Positions 2,670 through 12,961 of a stretch of 64,000 nt of DNA are shown here, piece after piece; position 1 is the stretch's first letter, and every line of letters starts with the position of its first letter. The position numbers were made by a program, and so were the translations under genes. The stretch comes from Nitrospirales bacterium (GTDB lineage: Bacteria > Nitrospirota > Nitrospiria > Nitrospirales > UBA8639), in assembly GCA_965223295.1 (NCBI GenBank), contig CBDCWC010000003.1, positions 96,001-160,000 of the forward strand. The letters are read 5' to 3'. The notes under the pieces were generated by a model. That model was not told where the DNA came from, searched no databases, and worked only from the letters and a program-made list of their open reading frames with translations.

Positions 2670-3076
2670 AACTTTCTGCTGCTGTCAAAAAGAAACCGCG
2701 GATTGAGATCATTCCCATGATCGACACGATGTTTTTTTTGCTTGTCTTTTTCATGATTGCCACACTATCAATGACCATACAACATGGTATGCCTGTGAAT
2801 CTTCCTGAAGCCAGCTCCACAACCGACGACGTGAAGGAGCCGGTTTCGTTGACCATTACAGAAAATGGAGACTTGTTTTACAACAAAGAAATGATTACGA
2901 TTCAGGAGCTTCAAACAAGGCTCACAGGGCTTATCCAAAAAAATCCGGAGCCAACGATTGTGATCAATGCAGATGAACAGGTAACGCACGGCTTGGTCGT
3001 GACTGTTATGGATAAATTCCGACTGAGCGGCATTCAGCACATGGCGATTGCCACAAAACCTGAAGCCACACAATGA
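2666..3076 (+). CDS. exbD: ExbD/TolR biopolymer transporter
   Basis: IEIIPMIDTMFFLLVFFM, VNLP, INAD motifs. ATGA overlap with exbB. Confidence 0.93.
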   Translation: MKLSAAVKKKPRIEIIPMIDTMFFLLVFFMIATLSMTIQHGMPVNLPEASSTTDDVKEPVSLTITENGDLFYNKEMITIQELQTRLTGLIQKNPEPTIVINADEQVTHGLVVTVMDKFRLSGIQHMAIATKPEATQ

Positions 3077-3417
3077 GAATGTCTTCAAAAATGAGTCACA
3101 TACGGTCAGGGGGGATCTTTCTCTCTTCTCTGTATGTATTTCTCCTGGGCGCCGCATCATTTTGCATGTTCGCCCATTCCACTCCTCTGAACGAAGAAAG
3201 CCACCATACCCAACACACTGCGACCCATTCCACGTTATGTACCTGGGCTTGTCAGGTCAGTTCCTCTCCTTCAAACGGGCAGGTTGCCTCAACGCCTGAG
3301 ACAAAGCCAGATTTGTTGCTTATTGCTCTTCTTCCAAACTTTTCTAGCATTCCACTTCCGTATGAGATCGCTTCTGCTCCATCTCGCGCCCCACCTCGGG
3401 TATTCCTTTCTCTGTAG
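3073..3417 (+). CDS. DUF2946-like (CruR/CutF-type) leader protein with C-terminal RAPP motif
   Basis: TM/signal segment, His-rich stretch (HHTQHTATH), CTWAC, then SRAPP near the C-terminus. ATGA overlap with exbD. Confidence 0.65.
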   Translation: MRMSSKMSHIRSGGIFLSSLYVFLLGAASFCMFAHSTPLNEESHHTQHTATHSTLCTWACQVSSSPSNGQVASTPETKPDLLLIALLPNFSSIPLPYEIASAPSRAPPRVFLSL

Positions 3418-3823: not shown

Positions 3824-3914
3824 TTTCCCGACCAAAGTGTTGTATGTGACGGCATCTATCGGTAGCAAAAGATGCACCAAAAACCTATGATGTTTTAGAT
3901 TGGGTTGTTTATCA

Positions 3915-4265
3915 ATGTCCATCAAATTTGTGATGAGAATTCCATCTCTTCAAAAATTTTTTGTGATCGGGTTAGGACTATGGCTTCTTATCATGAGTGC
4001 TGTTTTAGCCTATCCGATCACAAGTCATGCTATTGATCACCAGCACACGCCGCACAACCATTCCCAAACATGGTGTGACTGGATGTGTAAGGCCAGTCAT
4101 GTAATTCACACACCATCTGTTGTTCTGGCAGAATCATCTTACGTTCTCACATCAAGGTTTCTCTCCTATTCAATCCATCACCTTTCCTCTCTCCTTTTCT
4201 CACCAGACTCTCGTGCTCCTCCAGCGATGCCTCTCTCCTCATCGACCTTACACATATCTGATTGA
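3915..4265 (+). CDS. Second DUF2946-like leader protein with RAPP motif
   Basis: TM segment, His-rich stretch (HAIDHQHTPHNH), CDWMC, DSRAPP. Start codon uncertain. Confidence 0.65.
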   Translation: MSIKFVMRIPSLQKFFVIGLGLWLLIMSAVLAYPITSHAIDHQHTPHNHSQTWCDWMCKASHVIHTPSVVLAESSYVLTSRFLSYSIHHLSSLLFSPDSRAPPAMPLSSSTLHISD

Positions 4266-4326: not shown

Positions 4327-4514
4327 AGGACTGTTGAATAATCTAATTTCAAGTTACGAACACGCTTCCAGTGCAGTGGAGGGTTCGATGCGACGGGAAT
4401 GGTCAAAAAAGTCCGCCCCCCTGCGCGAAGCCGCTTTCAGCCTTCGTAGCCACTTCGGCGAAGGAAGCCCGGCGAAGGCAGGGAACGCCGGTGGCGGATT
4501 TTTTCAACATTCCC
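4327..4514. mobile_element. MITE family A, copy 1
   Basis: Ends AGGACTGTTGAA...TTCAACATTCCC. 5-bp TSD AAAGA at 4322-4326 and 4515-4519. Confidence 0.85.
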
Positions 4515-4577
4515 AAAGACACAATACCCGGTGCAAGAGACGCCTGCTCGTTCATGACTTTGGAGGAGGTTGCAAAC

Positions 4578-5327
4578 ATGCTTCTCACTCAAGCCATCAT
4601 TCGACATTGGATACCGATATCTTTCTTTGTTCTCGCGAATCTATTCAGCATATCTGTCCTCACTTTTTCAGTGCATGCCGAGCATGTACTGGCCCTTCGA
4701 TTAGCCGCGACCCCATTGAATCGCAGCATGTGTGGCATATCGAATGAACATTCCTCTATTCGTATTCTTGCAGCCAAGCATAGAGATCTGTTTCTCCAAA
4801 AAGTTCCTGGCCAACACCGTCCCAAGAATAACCAGGACGCCAGAAAAAAAGACTATGTACACTTTGTCACGATAGCTGACCTCACTGGCGGCCAAATACC
4901 CAATGGCGCCATTGCATTTGACGACCGCCATGCCGTGATCTTTGATGACACACACCCCAAAGGTCTCGCGCGACCAAGATTTTTGTCTCAACTTACTGAC
5001 CATCAACGTCTCATAGCCGAATTGGCATTGAATACTTTTTTGCGCCTCCATCAGGTGTTCAATGCTGCCATTGATACCTGTCGACCCCATCCTGCCTTTT
5101 CGGACTATGAAAATGATGATGATGTGTTACGAATTGAAAAAGGGAAGCGGACATTCAAAAATCTTGTTCAACAATACAACAGCCACCCTTCTTTCCCTCA
5201 AAACACCTCACTTCATGAGCCAGGAACCATAGGAGGATTTGTTGATCCTCATGCAGGCAAAAAATCATATTCGGACTATCAAGCGATGAATCCATTGAAT
5301 TTTTACGTCCCCACGTCGCTTCGTTAA
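4578..5327 (+). CDS. Secreted hypothetical protein
   Basis: SD GGAGGAGGT before ATG 4578, signal peptide ending VHA. The longer ORF call from 4371 runs through the MITE. Confidence 0.65.
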   Translation: MLLTQAIIRHWIPISFFVLANLFSISVLTFSVHAEHVLALRLAATPLNRSMCGISNEHSSIRILAAKHRDLFLQKVPGQHRPKNNQDARKKDYVHFVTIADLTGGQIPNGAIAFDDRHAVIFDDTHPKGLARPRFLSQLTDHQRLIAELALNTFLRLHQVFNAAIDTCRPHPAFSDYENDDDVLRIEKGKRTFKNLVQQYNSHPSFPQNTSLHEPGTIGGFVDPHAGKKSYSDYQAMNPLNFYVPTSLR

Positions 5328-5508
5328 CACTGGCAGGTATGATTCGTATAAGAAAGCCGTAGCATATGTATGTAAACTTAGGTAGACAGACTTATAGCAT
5401 CCACCCTATGCTGTGAGAGAAAACTGGACAGACGAACTCCATTAAAGGGGACCATCGTCTCTCTGTATACTCACAGGGTTTCAATACAATACTAGGAGGT
5501 TGCGGTTC

Positions 5509-6057
5509 ATGAAAAAGTTTGTTTGGCTAACTGTCATGTTGGTGTTCATGGGGTGTGCGTCAACATCAATGGCTCCGAGTACACAATCAGGCAAAATGCC
5601 TCAGGATGGGGAATTAGTATTTCCCAAAAATTACAAAACGTTCTCAACATTTTTACACGGCATCCAAAAACCTAATGCTGTCCGTGATCTTTATATCAAC
5701 AACATAGGAGCCCAAGCACATCATGGCGAATCCTTTGCCAACGGATCTATCCTAGTCATGGAAATCTACAATGCTAAGAAAGGCCCCGGCGATACGTTAC
5801 AAAAAGACGGTCAAGGGAATCTGATAAAGGATGGTCTTGCGAAAGTCTATGTCATGCAAAAAGGCAAGGGCTGGGGCCAACAAGCACCACAAGGTTTAAG
5901 AAATGGAGATTGGATCTACTCGGCATTCAAGCCCAATGGGGATCGATTAGATGTTGATTATACAACATGCCGTGGCTGTCACATGCCATTAGGTGACGCC
6001 AAGGATTATGTGCATCACTACGACGAATATTTCGAAAAACGAGTACATATGCATTAA
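5509..6057 (+). CDS. Cytochrome P460 / c'-beta family lipoprotein
   Basis: Lipobox FMGC, F.NGSILVMEIY, NGDW.Y..F, C-terminal CRGCH heme motif and DYV. Confidence 0.85.
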   Translation: MKKFVWLTVMLVFMGCASTSMAPSTQSGKMPQDGELVFPKNYKTFSTFLHGIQKPNAVRDLYINNIGAQAHHGESFANGSILVMEIYNAKKGPGDTLQKDGQGNLIKDGLAKVYVMQKGKGWGQQAPQGLRNGDWIYSAFKPNGDRLDVDYTTCRGCHMPLGDAKDYVHHYDEYFEKRVHMH

Positions 6058-6077
6058 TCCAACAACCAAACACATAT

Positions 6078-6218
6078 GGGCATCTCTAAAAACTGGTGTT
6101 TTGTTCTGAGGGCAAGGAAGCGGCGCGCGGAAAGCCGGAGTGTATGGGCCAATACATGAGGATTTGAGCACGCCGCTGACGCCGCCATCGGGAAAAAGGA
6201 CAGTTTTTAGAGGTGCCC
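6078..6218. mobile_element. MITE family B (IS-derived, non-autonomous)
   Basis: 18-bp TIRs GGGCATCTCTAAAAACTG / CAGTTTTTAGAGGTGCCC (17/18 match). No ORF inside. Confidence 0.75.
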
Positions 6219-6220
6219 AT

Positions 6221-6312
6221 GTATCAAGGTAGGCTCTTCTTCCTCCTAACCTTTGATACGACAGGGTGAAGGCATATTGGACCGACCTCCTTGGCCTTCA
6301 CCCTGGCCTTTT
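6221..6312 (+). ncRNA. Putative two-hairpin sRNA with anti-SD loops, copy 1
   Basis: Hairpins at 6221-6259 and 6262-6305. Second copy at 8887-8972 with compensatory stem changes. Confidence 0.55.
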
Positions 6313-6883
6313 ACCATACGCCTTTCGTCTCGCGAATGACCTCTTGCCCAGGAGGCATCAGATGAACAATCAATATCCAACTTCTTCTCAACAGCGTTTA
6401 CACCAAATGAGAGTCCAAAACCTTCAAAATCGGTGACGCCATGTCTCCAGCCTGTGCCTCTGCGACTTTGCACGACTCTGGAACGAAACCATTGGCGAGC
6501 TACGTGATCTAAGAACTTCCCAAGAACCGGGTAAGATTCAATACGAGAAAGACTCCATTAAGAATGCGTCTACGAATAATCCCTACCTTAGATAAAGAAA
6601 AGGACTCAATTCTCAAGAACTGAGTCCCTTCCAATCCACTTTCATCATCATTTTTCTTATTGTTGACTATGACTTGTTAAGACCTGCTCTCCTCACATCC
6701 TTCACCATATTCTACAACGTTCGAAGAAAATTATTGACAAGCATGTCTTGCTAAATACCAGCATCGCACACTAAAAAAACACCTCCACTATCTCCCCTGA
6801 CCTGGTCCCATGGACACTATATAGCTACATCTATTTTTCATAGCAAAAACAACATGGGGGAAATTTAGACCTACGAACAAGAG

Positions 6884-7546
6884 TCACGTTCTGCTCTTAT
6901 TCCATCGCCAAAGCCCGAGCCCTAGCAAACCTGAACTCATCAACATAACCGTTGATGGCTCGGGAACTGGTTGCTGAGTCGCTGTTGCCACTCCCTCAAT
7001 ATCCAACGCCCAGGCACCCATTCGATTATTCCCATCAGCGTCACAAAACGACCCATTCGAACAACCAAAAAACTCCGTAAAATCTCCAATGCCCTCTTGA
7101 GCAAACCCATCTGAAATTGTCGAACCTAGTGCCAGATTATCAAACTGCGTCAGCGCCACACGGTATTCACCAGGTTCTAACGAAGCTTCTAGAAAGGAAT
7201 CAAAGGCATTTTCACTCATGGGATCAACGCCAACATCAAGAATATCACCATCCTCGTTTTCCAAGCGGAACAGTCCACTCAAATCAAAGAGAGAGACAAC
7301 AGGATCAAAGCCACCGGCAGAAACAATATCGCCAGCGGCATTGGTTCCTCCGCCATACGATAAGGTTTTCACTGTCACTGTTGATGGAGCCGTAAGAGAA
7401 AAATCGAACAATTTTACATCATCATCCAAAGTAAACTGTCCAGTAAAGGAAAGATTGACAGCTAACACAACCTGTGGGAGAGCGAATACTGTTCCCAGAC
7501 AAGAGAGAAGACTGAGTAACCATTGATTAGAATATCTATAACCCAT
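6884..7546 (-). CDS. PEP-CTERM protein, DVUA0089 (FDP_PEP)-like
   Basis: Signal peptide, TLSYGGGTNAAG..GGFDP motif, C-terminal VPEPST + TM + RWNKSR. Confidence 0.88.
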   Translation of the reverse strand: MGYRYSNQWLLSLLSCLGTVFALPQVVLAVNLSFTGQFTLDDDVKLFDFSLTAPSTVTVKTLSYGGGTNAAGDIVSAGGFDPVVSLFDLSGLFRLENEDGDILDVGVDPMSENAFDSFLEASLEPGEYRVALTQFDNLALGSTISDGFAQEGIGDFTEFFGCSNGSFCDADGNNRMGAWALDIEGVATATQQPVPEPSTVMLMSSGLLGLGLWRWNKSRT

Positions 7547-7664
7547 GGTACATTCCTTTCAACGCAAATGATGAGGAAGATGACTGACTCAATTCAAGCA
7601 GGATAACGAGCCGTGATAACTTCCTGTCGATTGCCAGCCCGTTACCTTCTCTGCATTTCACATA

Positions 7665-8486
7665 CTATTTTTTTGCTGGCCAAAACCCCCTGATAGGTAA
7701 ATATTCATCAATCTCATGGGCAGCGGGAGACACCTCCACACCAAATCCCTCACCACAGTTCGCCGGCAGTGGATTGTTTTCTAAGTCACGGATCACGGTA
7801 ATTTGAGGCCAAAACCCTTCGGCCACAATCGTTGGATCGTCAAAGGCAGGCGTGAGATTGGCCATCCAAACATCCGCACGATCAGCACCCTTCTTTGAAT
7901 GCGTGCAGTAATTCGCAATAGCAATATTAATTTGAAGTTTGGCGATACACGACGTTTCTTGAAATTGAGGATAGGACGCTCTCCAAGGAACAAGCCCCAC
8001 CAACTCTGGATCTAATTTTCCTTTAGTGTACCGAAACGCCCGGACATCTGAACTGACCGTGTTTCCTCGAGACACATAGGGAGCGACAGAACCTTCCACA
8101 CGTCTAATTTTTCGGAATACGTTGTGATCCTGCACAGGGCGGGCACCCATAATAGGATTCCCTTTGATATGACTGCCCAAAGCCACGTCTTCACCAGTAT
8201 CCATGCGCTTTGCCACGGTAGAACTCCCATTCGGGAATACGGCACTCATCGCTCGAATAGCTGTCCCATTGCATCCATGCGGAACACTGAATGAATTCAC
8301 GACGCTGCTAGCTCCTTCTAATTCGACCCGTTCAGCAAATGCATTTGGCGTATTTTTGGGAAGGACTGTCGTGTGAGGATTAGCCAACACATCACTCAGA
8401 CCCACACCAGGCCCCACTATGAGTCCACCCAATATCAAACCCATCACCATTTCTTTTCGCAAGCTCAATTGATGCCCCCTCTTCAT
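7665..8486 (-). CDS. YcnI/DUF1775-like secreted copper-binding protein
   Basis: Signal peptide, His near the mature N-terminus (NPHTTV), FSVPHGC motif typical of YcnI family. SD AGGAGG. Confidence 0.6.
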   Translation of the reverse strand: MKRGHQLSLRKEMVMGLILGGLIVGPGVGLSDVLANPHTTVLPKNTPNAFAERVELEGASSVVNSFSVPHGCNGTAIRAMSAVFPNGSSTVAKRMDTGEDVALGSHIKGNPIMGARPVQDHNVFRKIRRVEGSVAPYVSRGNTVSSDVRAFRYTKGKLDPELVGLVPWRASYPQFQETSCIAKLQINIAIANYCTHSKKGADRADVWMANLTPAFDDPTIVAEGFWPQITVIRDLENNPLPANCGEGFGVEVSPAAHEIDEYLPIRGFWPAKK

Positions 8487-8886
8487 AGATCCCCTCCTTA
8501 CAATAAGATAAACACGTGAATTGCGGTTGATAAAAACGCTGGAAATGAGACGTTTTCTTCAGAAAAAAACAGGAGAGTCCAATGTATCGATACACCAGGA
8601 GAATTTCTACTGATGCATATCAAAAGATACTACAGTTTGCTACATCTCGTTCTTCAATTTTTACAGTCAATGTTTCAAAAATAAAAAATATGCCATTCCC
8701 AAAGCGCCATTATAAGCATAAAATTTGGCCATTTTTCCCTCAATTCACCGAAGGAGAATGAGACTTGTTGCATCCATAAGCAAGTATGTCTAGACAAATT
8801 TTTACCTTTTTCGATAACTTGAAAAAATCGCGACTCTACAAGCACCTGAGGCATAGGGCCGCCAACATCACTCGACACCAGAACAA

Positions 8887-8972
8887 CTCCAAGGTGGGGT
8901 CTTCCTCCTGGCTTTGGAGATAACAGGGTGAAGGCATTTGGACCGACCTCCTTGGCCTTCACCCTGTTTTTA
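8887..8972 (+). ncRNA. Putative two-hairpin sRNA with anti-SD loops, copy 2
   Basis: Hairpins at 8887-8919 and 8922-8968, followed by a T-tract. G-U pairs favour the + strand. Confidence 0.55.
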
Positions 8973-9137
8973 TTCCACTACTGAAACGTAAAGGCTTCGT
9001 CCATCAAGACCGCATAACTGATTTGCATACGGATTGTTCTCAAGTTTTCCCACCCAATTTTCTTTCCACCCTCGTTCTTGATAATCTGCCTATACTCTAT
9101 TTTCTTCCCCTTTCACTCCATCCGGCTGGAGGTCTGC

Positions 9138-10196
9138 ATGAATGCAGTTTGTCCATCTTTCGACATTGGTCCACTCATTCGTCTTGTCACCGTATTACTT
9201 TCATTTTGTGTTGGTTCCTGGCCCCTAACAGGATTCGCTCACCCAGCAGGAGACTTTTACCACCAAGCGGTCGAAGCCATTCAGACTCAGAATCTTCAAG
9301 AGGCTGAATCTTTACTTCATAAGGCCATTTCTGAATTCCCCGCCTATGCCAAGGCTCATCATCTACTGGGACTGGTGCACTACCAGCTTACACAGGACCC
9401 TCATACCGCAATTTCTTCACTTCAACAGGCTGTTCACTTCAATTCCAACTTTGCTCAAGCCCACCATGACTTGGGTCTACTATTGTTAAAAGAAAAAAAG
9501 ATGGGAGAAGCACAACAAGCGCTTCAACAAGCCTTGACCCTGTACCCAAAATTTTGGGAAGCCCGGCTCACATTAGCCAAAACCTTAGACCAAACCGGAG
9601 CAACAGACAAAGCTCTGGAAGAATATGAAACCGTCTTGGACCAAGAGCCTTCCTCCACGGAGGCACTATTTCATTTGGCCTATCATCTTATGCAAAGGAA
9701 TCAACACAACCAGGCTCATGCTCTCCTTACCCGTCTGACAACCCATGACCCACAACATGCTGAAGGCTGGCATTTACTCGGCCGTCTTTTCGAGCAGACC
9801 CAGCAAATCGATCAAGCCACTGATGCCTACCGGCACGTTTTGAAGAACAACCCAGAGCATGCCGAAGCCCATTACAATTTGGGGTTTCTCTATCAACAAG
9901 ACAATGAAACGCAAAAAGCTATTGCGCACTTTCAGCAAGTGGTGCAATTAACACCCACAGATGCTGAAGCCTATTTTAATTTGGGTGTACTCTTTGTCTC
10001 AGAAAAGCAGTTGGATCAGGCAGAGGTCGCCTATCAGAAAGGCCTAGAATTACAGCCAGAATCCATGGAGGGGCAATTCAATATGGGAGCTTTTTATGAA
10101 TTTCATAAAGAAGATCTGCAAAAGGCCAAACATCATTATAAAAAATATCTAGAACTGGGCGGCACTGATACACGCATTCAAAAACTCATGAAGTAA
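9138..10196 (+). CDS. Secreted TPR protein (paralog of 95-1141)
   Basis: TPR motifs. Shared C-terminus YEFH....KA...YK.Y..LGG.D.RI.KL. SD GGAGG before ATG 9138. Confidence 0.9.
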   Translation: MNAVCPSFDIGPLIRLVTVLLSFCVGSWPLTGFAHPAGDFYHQAVEAIQTQNLQEAESLLHKAISEFPAYAKAHHLLGLVHYQLTQDPHTAISSLQQAVHFNSNFAQAHHDLGLLLLKEKKMGEAQQALQQALTLYPKFWEARLTLAKTLDQTGATDKALEEYETVLDQEPSSTEALFHLAYHLMQRNQHNQAHALLTRLTTHDPQHAEGWHLLGRLFEQTQQIDQATDAYRHVLKNNPEHAEAHYNLGFLYQQDNETQKAIAHFQQVVQLTPTDAEAYFNLGVLFVSEKQLDQAEVAYQKGLELQPESMEGQFNMGAFYEFHKEDLQKAKHHYKKYLELGGTDTRIQKLMK

Positions 10197-10290
10197 TGGG
10201 AAAATCAGCAGTCTTAGCTACTGATAAATATTACATCTCTAGAAGGACAAGATTCATGGGAATACTCCCCTTTTCTCATATGAAGATTAT

Positions 10291-12390
10291 CTAGAAACTA
10301 AATTCTGTTGAAAAAATAGCATTGATGCCAGGAGCATTGATGCCCGATCCATGTTCCTGATAAGGCTGATCTAATATATTCAGGAGTGAAAGTCTAGCAA
10401 TCACGCCTGATCCAAAGTCATAACTTGAACGAAAATTCAGTGTGACCCAACCTGGAGTGCCATCAGGGTCGATCCGAGAATCGGACTGATCGCGGGGACT
10501 GAGACGGTCTTGTCGATTCGCAAATCGCACGAATGATTCCAACCGAAGTTTTGGTGTGAATTGATACGCTGCCCCAAATCGGCCATAGAGTGGAGAAATG
10601 CGATCAGCTGGGTTGGTCCGACCTCCACTAACGGTTTCCTTGCCCCAGGTAAAAGTAAGATTCCCAAAGACTTCCCCTTGTTCATGCCATAGCCATCGAA
10701 CACCCGTTTCAAATCCTAAAAGTGCCACTGCATTCACATTGGCATTTTGGACCACGACTCTCCCGTCATTGGTTATGGCCCCAGTAGGCACGGATTCAAT
10801 TTTATCCTCAATGTTGATGAGAAACCCAATCAATTCCCCCGAAAATTTTGGTGTTTCCCATTTGATGCCCGAGTCAACGCTCCATGCCTTTTCGGGCCCT
10901 AAATTCGTATTTGGAACATTGAACCGATTCCCTGGTCTCGCTCCTAAGGTTGAGAGGTCAAAAATATTTGGAGTGCGAATGGCTCTCCCAAAATTGGCAA
11001 CCAAATTTACAGACTTTGTCAAATGAAAAATTGTCCCCACATCCCCTGTAAATTCAGAGACCGACAAGTGCGTCCCAACAGAACGATCGGCTCTGGGTAC
11101 ATCAATATCGACATAACTCCAACGACCTCCCACTGTGACCTCCCATAGGGAAGAAAGTTGTACGGTCGTTTGTAGGTACACAGCTCCACTCGTGATCGAT
11201 GAATGATTGGCAAACCGGCTGGACACAGAGACAGTGTCCCCTGTGACCACATTTTGGCGTAGACGACGACTTCGTACTTCATCCCGGAGGACTTGAACGC
11301 CGTATTGAAACATTGCATACTCTTTCCAGTGGGAGAGCACTTTCAAATTAAACTCTAACAAGCGATCGCGATTTTCCTCTCGATCAACTTCAAGGCTGTC
11401 AAAATCGCGAATCTGCCGATCGTCGTTGATTTCTTGGAAACTCAGGTTAGCTTCAAGCCGATCAAAGAAAAAAGAATTCAGATTGTGGAGGTAGCGACCA
11501 TGAATAAACAGGCGGTTATTGGGTTTAAAAAAAAACTCAGAAGCACTGGGCTGCTCTTGCCCAAAGCCAGCATGTAATTGGTCAAAACGCGGAGTCTTCG
11601 GTTGTTCAAGGAATTGGACGTTTAGTAAAAAGTTTTGGTATTCGTCACCAATGAAGATTTTTCCATCTCCGGCAAAAGCATTAAAAGCAGAAGGACGTTG
11701 GTGACCGATATCACCCCCTCCCCGAACATCTTCATGGCCTTGATACGTAAATCCTCCACTTAGGCCTAGTCCTTCATAGCCGCCCTTTAGAGCTAATCGA
11801 GTCATCCGTGATAAATCCGCACTGCGAAACCCGCCATGAAGCGTTCCATCCCACGTCCAATTCGTTGTCTGAAAACGGGGGATGGGGGTCTGCACATTTA
11901 CCACTCCACCTATGGCTCCATTGCCATAGAGAGTAGGACTCGCTCCTCGGATCAAGTCAATCTGGTCTACGTTATGTGGATCTATTAAGGCAAAGTATTG
12001 GTTGGGAGCTGATCGAAAAATGGCATTATTCAAGCGCATGCCATCAACGAGCATCACAGTTGAACTGCCCAACAACCCTCGAAGAATCGGTGTTCCCTGT
12101 CCAGGTGTGGTTTCTTGAATGAACACCCCTGTTTCCCCACGAAGGGCATCAGAAAGAGTGTGTGGAGCTCGTTCTTTGATGATTTCCTTCTCGATCACGC
12201 TTTTTGCGGAAGAGACTTCAAACCAGGTTGGCTTTCCTTCTTTGGCCGATACCGTAACTACATCTAATTGCTCCACGCCGTCTTCTTGAAGAGGGATCTC
12301 CTGTGTTTCATGAGGATAATTTTTCCCTGATACCAAACTAGGTAAGGCTAATATTGAAACAAGGAAGATAAAGAGTAGAACACTTTTCAT
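10291..12390 (-). CDS. TonB-dependent outer-membrane receptor
   Basis: TonB box LDVVTVSA, plug motifs (PILRGL, LVDGMRLN, LYGNGAIGGVVN), terminal Phe. Start taken at MKSVLLF; the ORF is open to 12480. Confidence 0.93.
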   Translation of the reverse strand: MKSVLLFIFLVSILALPSLVSGKNYPHETQEIPLQEDGVEQLDVVTVSAKEGKPTWFEVSSAKSVIEKEIIKERAPHTLSDALRGETGVFIQETTPGQGTPILRGLLGSSTVMLVDGMRLNNAIFRSAPNQYFALIDPHNVDQIDLIRGASPTLYGNGAIGGVVNVQTPIPRFQTTNWTWDGTLHGGFRSADLSRMTRLALKGGYEGLGLSGGFTYQGHEDVRGGGDIGHQRPSAFNAFAGDGKIFIGDEYQNFLLNVQFLEQPKTPRFDQLHAGFGQEQPSASEFFFKPNNRLFIHGRYLHNLNSFFFDRLEANLSFQEINDDRQIRDFDSLEVDREENRDRLLEFNLKVLSHWKEYAMFQYGVQVLRDEVRSRRLRQNVVTGDTVSVSSRFANHSSITSGAVYLQTTVQLSSLWEVTVGGRWSYVDIDVPRADRSVGTHLSVSEFTGDVGTIFHLTKSVNLVANFGRAIRTPNIFDLSTLGARPGNRFNVPNTNLGPEKAWSVDSGIKWETPKFSGELIGFLINIEDKIESVPTGAITNDGRVVVQNANVNAVALLGFETGVRWLWHEQGEVFGNLTFTWGKETVSGGRTNPADRISPLYGRFGAAYQFTPKLRLESFVRFANRQDRLSPRDQSDSRIDPDGTPGWVTLNFRSSYDFGSGVIARLSLLNILDQPYQEHGSGINAPGINAIFSTEFSF

Positions 12391-12961
12391 GGGAAAGGAA
12401 GACCCGTAACTTCTCCAGGAATTTATCAGGGTTTCTTTGAGAAACGTCCTGAAGGGGAGAAAGTGCAGAGCCAACGACATTCGTGAAATGGCCTTGAGAC
12501 GATTTTGCGTAGTTATGGCCTAAGGGTAGCCATGGAGACTCTTGACACTCTTCGACAGACTGCAGAAGGAAACTTCAGACGAGATGATCAGTGAGCGGGG
12601 AATTTCCCGTGAGCACTGAAAAACCCTTCAAGGGGTACAACGATATAGTTCGGGGTTCGAAAAGAGGAATTGAATGGCTTCTCCTCAAGAGGAAATTTTT
12701 CTTATTTCTATGGGGATCTTCACGGAAACAGACGAAAATTCCTATAGATTCAAAAAAACCATTTACAAACAACAACTTGTACAAGCTCACTTGGAACGCG
12801 TGAAGGCAAAACTATGTATATATCTAACGCCTTTAAAATAAAGGATAATTTTCGTTTTGCGAGACTTTTTGTCCATTTGCATGAACAAACCCTAAAGGGA
12901 AGGAGAGTCTTTCGAGGCTAGTGGTAGAGTCCCGATTCAGCAAAAAGGCCCTTTAAAGTTC

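Follow-up and report, generated by a model that had tools for sequence, protein, structure and literature searches.

The 64,000 nucleotide stretch of contig CBDCWC010000003.1 from a Nitrospirales bacterium (assembly GCA_965223295.1, positions 96,001 to 160,000, forward strand), hereafter the window, carries two intergenic copies of a two-hairpin element with CCUCC in its loops, situated within a TonB-dependent uptake locus, and comparison with related genomes identifies this element as a real RNA family of the Nitrospiraceae. The function favoured here, for which the chances are judged to be about even, is that of a chaperone-independent anti-Shine-Dalgarno small RNA (sRNA) which would be co-regulated with the uptake locus.

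A preliminary description of the window had claimed two intergenic copies with a near-identical hairpin 2, a hairpin 1 that differs in sequence but keeps its pairing, and a hairpin-2 loop equal to the anti-Shine-Dalgarno sequence of 16S rRNA, and all three features were recovered. In copy 1, hairpin 1 lies on the + strand at 6221-6259 (arms 6221-6229 and 6250-6259, as judged from sequence and fold), with the loop CCTCC at 6242-6246, and is followed by hairpin 2 at 6262-6305, where a 12-bp stem (arms 6262-6273 and 6294-6305) encloses a loop (6274-6293) with ACCTCCTT at 6285-6292. Copy 2 has the same arrangement on the + strand, with hairpin 1 at 8887-8919 (arms 8887-8895 and 8910-8919; CCTCC at 8904-8908) and hairpin 2 together with a T-tract at 8924-8974 (arms 8924-8935 and 8955-8966; ACCTCCTT at 8946-8953). 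The 12-nt arms of hairpin 2 are identical in the two copies, and the arm pattern is matched twice in the window where 0.00 matches are expected (100 shuffles). The outer stem of hairpin 1 is GTATCAA/TTGATAC in copy 1 and CTCCAA/TTGGAG in copy 2, with pairing kept in both. Both loops of each copy contain CCUCC, and the octamer ACCTCCTT of the hairpin-2 loops recurs exactly within the genome's own 16S rRNA gene, at its 3' end (...GGATCACCTCCTTTCT at C3:1350687), a match of 8 nt. Two adjacent hairpins appear in both the minimum free energy and the centroid folds, and the + strand folds of copy 1 (-39.3 kcal/mol, z -4.4) and copy 2 (-48.3 kcal/mol, z -5.9) were equalled by none of 200 shuffles, while z-scores of -3.0 and -4.8, respectively, were obtained for the minus strand.

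The claim that the element forms a structured RNA family was substantiated by two alignments, in which the stems covary around fixed CCUCC loops. The first (A2; MAFFT) comprises 45 sequences of the types A and C defined below, drawn from 79 regular expression matches after ten non-family loci had been left out and 24 type-B/B2 matches set apart for separate handling, while the second (A4) comprises 68 hairpin-2 sequences of all types from seven genera, made up of 67 of 89 matches (22 non-family or reverse-strand matches were left out) and one sequence, from locus L175, added by hand. In A2, 93.0 % of cells pair and six pairs are changed on both sides, and in A4 these values are 98.6 % and seven of twelve pairs (for example CG/UA 47/14, GC/AU 61/5 and CG/UA/UG 40/8/16); the covariation score was reached by 0/500 shuffles in either alignment, although the sequences are kin and such shuffle counts overstate their independence. 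The stronger structural argument comes from controls with slid partners, in which pairing falls to 29-55 % (A2) and 30-55 % (A4), and from complete stem swaps. In genera further removed, most or all of the hairpin-2 stem is exchanged, for CCGAGTGAAGG/CCTTCACTCGG, AGAGTGAAAG/CTTTCACTCT and GGGAAAGCTCG/CGAGCTTTCCC (L168/L176/L177/L187, L174 and L175), with CAACCTCC retained in the loops, or CATCTCC in L174. Similarly, two 'B2' copies have a wholly swapped hairpin-1 stem and retain the loop CTGACC. CCTCC itself is invariant in 45/45 rows of A2. A candidate inner helix, GGA/UCC, inside the hairpin-2 loop was 73.5 % paired with no compensatory change, and is unsupported.

The family was found in part of the Nitrospiraceae. 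BlastN comparison with copy 2 (E ≤ 1e-8) gave matches in 25/36 genomes of the same genus and in 0/24 genomes of three other families of the order. A covariance model (R1) built on 45 sequences and searched against 115 Nitrospiraceae genomes matched 53 of these, with between one and seven matches per genome, in seven of thirteen genera (g1, 37/49 genomes; g21, 7/7; g19, 4/4; g18, 1/1; g13, 1/1; g15, 1/2; g23, 1/7), while 0/38 genomes of genus g12 and none of the single genomes of five other genera were matched. The window copies score 74.9 bits (copy 1, 6214-6313) and 96.2 bits (copy 2, 8879-8974) and are the only two in the genome (3.78 Mb in three contigs), both by this model and by a search allowing at most two mismatches. 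A pattern scan of all species genomes gave 113 stretches, 80 of which were examined by title; 44 among these 80 are from Nitrospira, Nitrospirales or Nitrospiraceae and the rest are from scattered phyla. Those matches from other phyla that were inspected lack hairpin 1 and the locus, and were taken as chance or GGGTGAGGG-type repeats. The suggestion that the family is undescribed was upheld by Rfam, which gave no relevant match at E ≤ 10 for window positions 5000-10500 (both copies) or for positions 7500-10000 of a relative's locus, L042 (its type B and type C copies).

All members share hairpin 2, with a 12-bp stem (mostly CAGGGTGAAGG(C/T)/(G/A)CCTTCACCCTG) and a loop of 17-27 nt with CCTCCT near its 3' side, and three types can be distinguished on the basis of hairpin 1. 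Type A, to which both window copies belong, has CCAAGG..TCTTCCTCCT..CCTTGG, type C has CCAGGG-ACGGACCGGCCTCCAA-CCTTGG, and type B has GGAGCGGCG-TGACTCATCCCTGACCCA-CCCCGCTCC, preceded on its 5' side by a conserved leader, CTGAAAGATCATTGCACTCTTCC. The modules are also mixed, with type-B-style loops combined with a type-A hairpin 1 in genus g21, and elsewhere with a type-C hairpin 1. In the g18 genome (L171, 5680-5919, minus strand) a P460 gene is followed by two family members in tandem with 45 nt between them, the second of which has a divergent hairpin-2 loop, CACCGCTCCC.

The + strand is identified as the transcribed strand on account of an excess of G.U over A.C pairs and of the T-tracts that follow hairpin 2, in line with the strand proposed in the preliminary description. 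The two main helices of A2 contain 51 G.U cells and five A.C cells, and an RNA from the minus strand would thus carry approximately ten-fold more mismatches. At least five T residues occur within 8 nt 3' of hairpin 2 in 14/23 type A, 18/24 type B and 3/22 type C copies, and in both window copies hairpin 1 lacks a preceding A-tract. Covariance-model scores ranged from 29.6 to 100.2 bits in the forward and reached at most 29.0 bits in the reverse direction, with a model that was itself built on the + strand. With its 12-14 bp stem followed by the T-tract TTTTTATT from 8967, copy 2 has the G+C-rich stem and T-tract of an intrinsic terminator, while copy 1 resembles one weakly (GCCTTTTAC, a weak T-tract). 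A simple terminator scan did not list hairpin 2, since its loop of 19-20 nt is longer than the scan allows. A minus-strand small protein was considered and rejected, as the ATG after AAGGAGG opens 33 codons in copy 2 and nine in copy 1, with length not conserved, and the minus-strand reading frames at 6246-6473 and 8675-8962 have no Pfam match.

The genomic setting of the family is conserved across all seven genera with R1 matches (g1, g13, g15, g18, g19, g21 and g23). Synteny was determined by clustering crude reading frames from the window and forty fetched loci, with clusters named by Pfam. The conserved array encodes TonB, a TPR protein, TonB, ExbB, ExbD and the proteins c1, c2 and c5, often followed by cytochrome P460, and a type A or C copy comes after this array in the same orientation. 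Type B copies lie upstream of genes for a BNR-repeat protein, c1, a TonB-dependent receptor and a TPR protein, likewise in the same orientation, and VKOR, PepSY_TM and thioredoxin-like genes also occur in the locus in some genomes. Genes for PAS-LuxR proteins and response regulators were likewise noted in some of the loci. Type A copies either overlap the stop codon that ends the c5 or P460 frame on their 5' side or start 0-50 nt after it. In genus g1, hairpin 2 of type A begins 23-97 nt after this stop, so that hairpin 1 starts at or just after it. In the window the P460 gene (5500-6057, + strand; Pfam 7e-18, and synteny) is the last of the tonB-TPR-tonB-exbB-exbD-c1-c2-c5-(P460) array and copy 1 lies 165 nt 3' of its stop, while the TPR gene 3' of copy 2 (9139-10196, + strand) begins at an ATG at 9139, read by eye and preceded by GGAGGTC, and the same order of element and TPR gene is found in relatives.

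The two window copies differ in what precedes them, which the preliminary description had overlooked, together with a repeat that abuts copy 1. No promoter-like element was found 5' of copy 1 in a regular expression scan. Copy 2 sits in a divergent intergenic region and is preceded by a promoter-like element at 8766-8818 (+ strand), consisting of TGTTGCAT...TAGACA (8791-8796), a 16-nt spacer and GATAAC (8813-8818). The same architecture, TGTwGCA..ATCrGTAGA.., approximately 17 nt, TAyATyT and the conserved leader, is seen in 28 aligned type-B upstream regions. The block TGTwGCA..GTAGA..TAnAnT was found 5' of hairpin 2 in ten of twelve type-B copies scanned (the distance is 138 nt for eight of these, and 142 nt and 150 nt for the other two), in 1/26 type A copies, namely window copy 2, and in 0/14 type C copies. 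The homologue of copy 2 in the nearest relative, G137, also has the block, which the expression missed by one letter. Between these two homologues, conservation covers the promoter block and the stretch of the RNA that runs from CAACATCACTCG as far as the terminator, and divergence is seen in the approximately 35 nt that separate them and in the DNA flanking the block. The predicted 5' leader of copy 2 (8825-8886, + strand) accordingly has a variable first part of approximately 35 nt and a conserved part from CAACATCACTCG on, and bears a likeness to the type-B leader. The RNA of copy 2 is predicted to start near 8825 and to extend to 8972, a span of approximately 148 nt.

A divergent promoter-like element of the same motif type lies on the minus strand at 8580-8634, before a gene for a 273-aa protein (TGTAGTAT..ATCAGTAGAAA..GATACATT), and a similar block stands before the BNR-c1-receptor operon of L042 (approximately 7720-7760, minus strand). 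The full promoter expression matched the copy-2 site alone in the whole genome. A looser core expression proved unspecific, with six sites in the genome and 27 in the reversed genome, and an nhmmer promoter profile scored the window site weakly (E 1.3). The occurrence of the block before copy 2, type B copies, the 273-aa gene and the L042 BNR gene suggests, without amounting to proof, a common regulator and perhaps a regulon. A perfect 12-bp palindrome, TGTATCGATACA, at 8583-8594 overlies the predicted -10 of the 273-aa gene.

From these features we infer the expression of the RNA, its action in trans, the signal to which it answers and its targets, on the following model. An RNA transcribed from the + strand would fold into hairpin 1 and then the long hairpin 2, which would usually double as an intrinsic terminator. 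Both loops would present CCUCC(U), with which the 16S 3' end itself recognises the Shine-Dalgarno sequence. Pairing of these loops with mRNA ribosome-binding sites of the GGAGG type would block the initiation of translation, with the loop flanks and the 5' leader possibly adding specificity. No Pfam match to Hfq or ProQ was found in the genome, which is rated 100 % complete, and the RNA would therefore act without a chaperone, by contact between loop and Shine-Dalgarno sequence. Paralogs would be produced in two ways, some as the 3'-terminal part of the tonB-exbBD-c5-(P460) operon, like copy 1, and others from a conserved promoter of their own, like copy 2 and type B. As the promoter motif is also found before neighbouring uptake genes, the RNA would be expected to rise and fall with the TonB-dependent uptake regulon. 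An anti-Shine-Dalgarno sRNA design is argued for by the two hairpins, the loops with the anti-Shine-Dalgarno core, the terminator-like 3' hairpin, the sibling copies and, for some, the dedicated promoter. Also counted in its favour is that copies are not always bound to one neighbour, with a convergent downstream gene at some (window copy 1; L170, L171 and L178) and a divergent upstream gene at others (window copy 2; the type B copy of L037; L186). A more ambitious version, which we regard as doubtful, is that this is the first riboregulator family of the nitrite-oxidising Nitrospira, in which mimics of the 16S tail, derived from operon 3' ends and from a dedicated promoter, would be switched on with the TonB-dependent uptake regulon by some regulator and, without Hfq or ProQ, would compete with ribosomes for strong GGAGG start sites, re-budgeting translation when the imported nutrient or metal is scarce.

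Several observations weigh against this sRNA model, besides the kinship of the aligned sequences noted above. CCUCC is lost in a few hairpin-2 loops outside A2, which have GATCTCC, GAGCTCC and GACATCC (L051, L050 and L051), and seven of the twelve hairpin-2 stem pairs never vary in A2, which may reflect sequence-specific binding of a protein. Correcting an earlier observation, the CCUCC motifs are only about half unpaired in the predicted ensembles, with mean unpaired probabilities of 0.55 (hairpin 1) and 0.42 (hairpin 2) for types A and C, and 0.76 and 0.41, respectively, for type B. Type C copies mostly do not have the T-tract (3/22). In addition, no specific target is supported by the exact-match search, which was run on crude gene calls, namely 3288 reading frames of 90 aa or more with starts picked by Shine-Dalgarno score. 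The longest perfect matches between loops and start regions are 13 nt for both hairpin-2 loops and for the hairpin-1 loop of copy 1, and 11 nt for the hairpin-1 loop of copy 2, and among 1000 flank-shuffled control loops these lengths were reached by 40-67 for hairpin 2, 121 for hairpin 1 of copy 1 and 637 for hairpin 1 of copy 2. Duplex energies, which included stem letters, were uninformative.

The best exact matches were to genes encoding a DUF1579 protein (13 nt), an unnamed 271-aa protein (13 nt), a DUF1264 protein (11 nt) and a hemerythrin (11 nt). The start region of the DUF1579 gene (G000:C2:224355-224951, minus strand; orthologues L196-L223) is complementary to the hairpin-2 loop over 13 nt, as it is in G016, while 15 bp with one G.U pair can form in G034. 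The DUF1579 orthologues have GGAGG(T/C)(C/T)GG in five lineages with CCGACCTCC-like sRNA loops (G000, G016, G034, G004 and G009), and GGAGGC(A/G)T instead in fifteen genomes of the type-B/C clade. The DUF1579 match is not significant alone, and as the genomes are related the variation serves as a lead only.

In the synteny loci, all mapped copies point in the direction of the genes on either side, a further point against a free sRNA, as this fits a cis role or co-transcription equally well as an sRNA derived from a 3' untranslated region, and some copies lie between genes of one apparent operon (c1-sRNA-c2 in L168 and L181). The element may be a cis-acting module of the uptake locus, a terminator, attenuator, leader or intercistronic stabiliser, the main alternative, which we consider possible but hold with rather low confidence. 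Such a module would set the flow from tonB-exbBD-c5-P460 into the TPR, BNR-c1-TonB-dependent receptor, VKOR and PepSY genes, and its CCUCC loops would serve to mask Shine-Dalgarno sites close by or to bind a factor, with no free sRNA reaching distant targets. The restriction of the co-oriented copies to intergenic gaps of one locus type in seven genera, the start of type A copies at or near the c5 or P460 stop codon and the copies inside an apparent operon are all in keeping with this. Furthermore, the type B order of promoter, leader, terminator-like hairpin and then BNR-c1-receptor genes is the layout of an attenuator, and the GGAGGTC before the TPR ATG is a 7-nt complement of the hairpin-2 loop. 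Against a cis role, the L042 gene that follows the type B copy starts approximately 330 nt downstream and has its own promoter-like motif, a co-oriented gene is missing downstream of several copies and upstream of others, and conservation sits in the loops more than in the stems, which a plain terminator does not need. By inspection only, no alternative antiterminator pairing of the conserved leader with hairpin 2 was seen.

It is improbable that the hairpin loops act as a decoy which titrates CsrA or another RNA-binding protein, as in the minus-strand CsrA sponge that the preliminary description had put forward as an alternative. CsrA is encoded in the genome (78 bits), the minus-strand loops AAGGAGG and AGGAGGAAGA contain GGA and are Shine-Dalgarno-like, and on the + strand GGA occurs as TTTGGAC, conserved in type A and B hairpin-2 loops, and as ACGGAC in the type-C hairpin 1; the unusually conserved hairpin-2 stem sequence would also suit a protein ligand. 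The minus-strand form is, however, disfavoured by the strand evidence, as the 51 G.U pairs would turn into C.A mismatches, with only five the other way, and the T-tracts follow hairpin 2 on the + strand while no A-tract precedes hairpin 1 in the window copies. The + strand GGA is absent from type-C hairpin-2 loops, from L174 and L175 and from the copy at L037:9848. With 0-2 GGA per RNA, and not in all members, the one or two sites offered are far fewer than those of known sponges. Moreover, csrA adjoins fliW (C2:1140236-1140592 and 1139902-1140057, within G000:C2:1139902-1140592 on the minus strand), and in Bacillus and Campylobacter FliW-partnered CsrA is known to be antagonised by the FliW protein rather than by sponge RNAs. 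The sponge proposal is weakened by the strand evidence and by this gene pair.

That the copies have no RNA function at all, and are a locally duplicated DNA repeat (of the repetitive extragenic palindrome or miniature inverted-repeat transposable element (MITE) kind, or recombination debris) or a protein-binding DNA palindrome, is very improbable, for although copy 1 directly abuts a true MITE-like repeat and the window copies flank a variable gene pair (the PEP-CTERM and 273-aa genes), the element has two copies in the genome and one to seven in relatives, without exception in a single locus type and orientation, its loops are conserved above its stems, and DNA palindromes need neither compensatory changes nor strand-specific wobble pairs. 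The abutting repeat lies between the P460 stop (6057) and copy 1, at 6078-6220, and is not part of the RNA family. It is a near-perfect palindrome of 143 nt with 18-bp terminal arms, which folds at -79 kcal/mol, and is present in 38 copies of at least 100 nt (87-96 % identity; contigs C2 and C3), including that of the window. The hundreds of dispersed copies that the preliminary description had named as the mark of such a repeat were thus not seen for the RNA element. Copies of the 143-nt repeat also occur beside csrA (L188, 824-972) and in the relative G137 (L186, 8860-9001).

The anti-Shine-Dalgarno sRNA favoured here is most suitably classed as a new family that follows a known design, that of the cuckoo/CcsR RNAs, AbcR/NfeR1 and the Neisseria siblings, without being a member of any of these, since it lacks the cuckoo motif, occurs in hosts of another phylum and is matched by no curated model. 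The cuckoo RNA family (RSs0680a-d/CcsR1-4, SmelA075 and others) of Alphaproteobacteria (Rhizobiales and Rhodobacterales) has two to four adjacent hairpins with CCUCCUCCC loops and highly variable stems, and RSs0680a binds Hfq (PMC4615179). Shared with these RNAs are two adjacent hairpins without a multiloop, C/U-rich anti-Shine-Dalgarno-like loops and several, often clustered, paralogs per genome (PMC4615179). In contrast, the window loops are TCTTCCTCCT and ACCTCCTT, with the motif CCUCC(U), and the CCUCCUCCC 9-mer is found in no member of A2 or A4. The hairpin-2 stem is, moreover, largely conserved, its loop shares an 8-nt stretch with the 16S 3' end, and the family has no Rfam match and lies in a TonB/ExbBD locus of Nitrospiraceae hosts without Hfq. 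AbcR1/2 and NfeR1 of rhizobia, the Neisseria sibling sRNAs and the staphylococcal RNAIII and UCCC-loop sRNAs likewise have sibling copies and C/U-rich loops that are proposed or shown to pair with ribosome-binding sites, but the sequences, structures and hosts are unrelated, no Rfam model of these matched, and targets and regulators are established there.

Small RNAs tied to iron or TonB uptake regulons, sometimes tandem-duplicated, are known from RyhB, PrrF1/2 and NrrF, and OmrA/B act on TonB-dependent receptors; no sequence or structural likeness to these was found, and no Fur-type operator was identified here. Small RNAs of the CpxQ/SdhX type derive from 3' untranslated regions and reuse the operon terminator. 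Type A and C copies resemble these, as they start at or close behind the stop of the final gene of an operon and finish with a terminator-like hairpin. Type B and copy 2, in contrast, are the same module under a promoter of its own, and such processing is putative here. Particular to the family are a match of 8 nt with the 16S tail, the absence of Hfq and ProQ from the host, paralogs of modular build that are found both at operon 3' ends and as stand-alone genes, and a fixed TonB/ExbBD/receptor locus.

Nitrospira oxidise nitrite in oceans, soils and wastewater plants, and the result listings of full-text literature searches contained neither a description of such an sRNA in Nitrospira nor one of any small-RNA regulator of these bacteria. 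A conserved, multi-copy RNA at a TonB/ExbBD/receptor locus may offer a way into how these organisms, which are hard to grow, control the acquisition of nutrients or metals post-transcriptionally, and the shared promoter motif points to a testable regulon. The family would also be a second, phylogenetically remote example of the two-hairpin design with anti-Shine-Dalgarno loops seen in Alphaproteobacteria. Even if it acts in cis, the element would be new among those that regulate TonB-dependent uptake genes.

The preliminary description had placed its new sRNA family in a copper-uptake locus; the new family and its locus of TonB, TPR, ExbB, ExbD, P460, BNR and receptor genes stood, while the copper label is unsupported, the data pointing to a TonB-dependent uptake locus. 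The TonB-dependent receptor of the window (10291-12480, minus strand) scored best, though below cut-off, against heme/hemoglobin (164 bits) and siderophore (159 bits) models, and reached 70 bits with the copper receptor model. The single hint of copper is a sub-threshold likeness of the 273-aa secreted-looking protein (7665-8486, minus strand; no Pfam or NCBIfam family) to DUF1775 (YcnI-like), the nearest named atlas clusters (0.89, below the threshold of the tool and a lead only). Homologues of this protein (cluster c20) shift place within the locus in the relatives L036, L038 and L186. The genes for c1 (3073-3417), c2 (3900-4265) and c5 (4371-5327), all on the + strand, are conserved and have no Pfam or NCBIfam match. 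The c1 gene recurs adjoining TonB-dependent receptors, and for the 318-aa c5 protein the atlas gave eukaryotic DENN clusters at low recognition, which were dismissed as noise. On the minus strand a strong terminator-like hairpin (6597-6632; sixteen pairs and then a T-run) lies 3' of the PEP-CTERM gene and faces copy 1 across the convergent gap.

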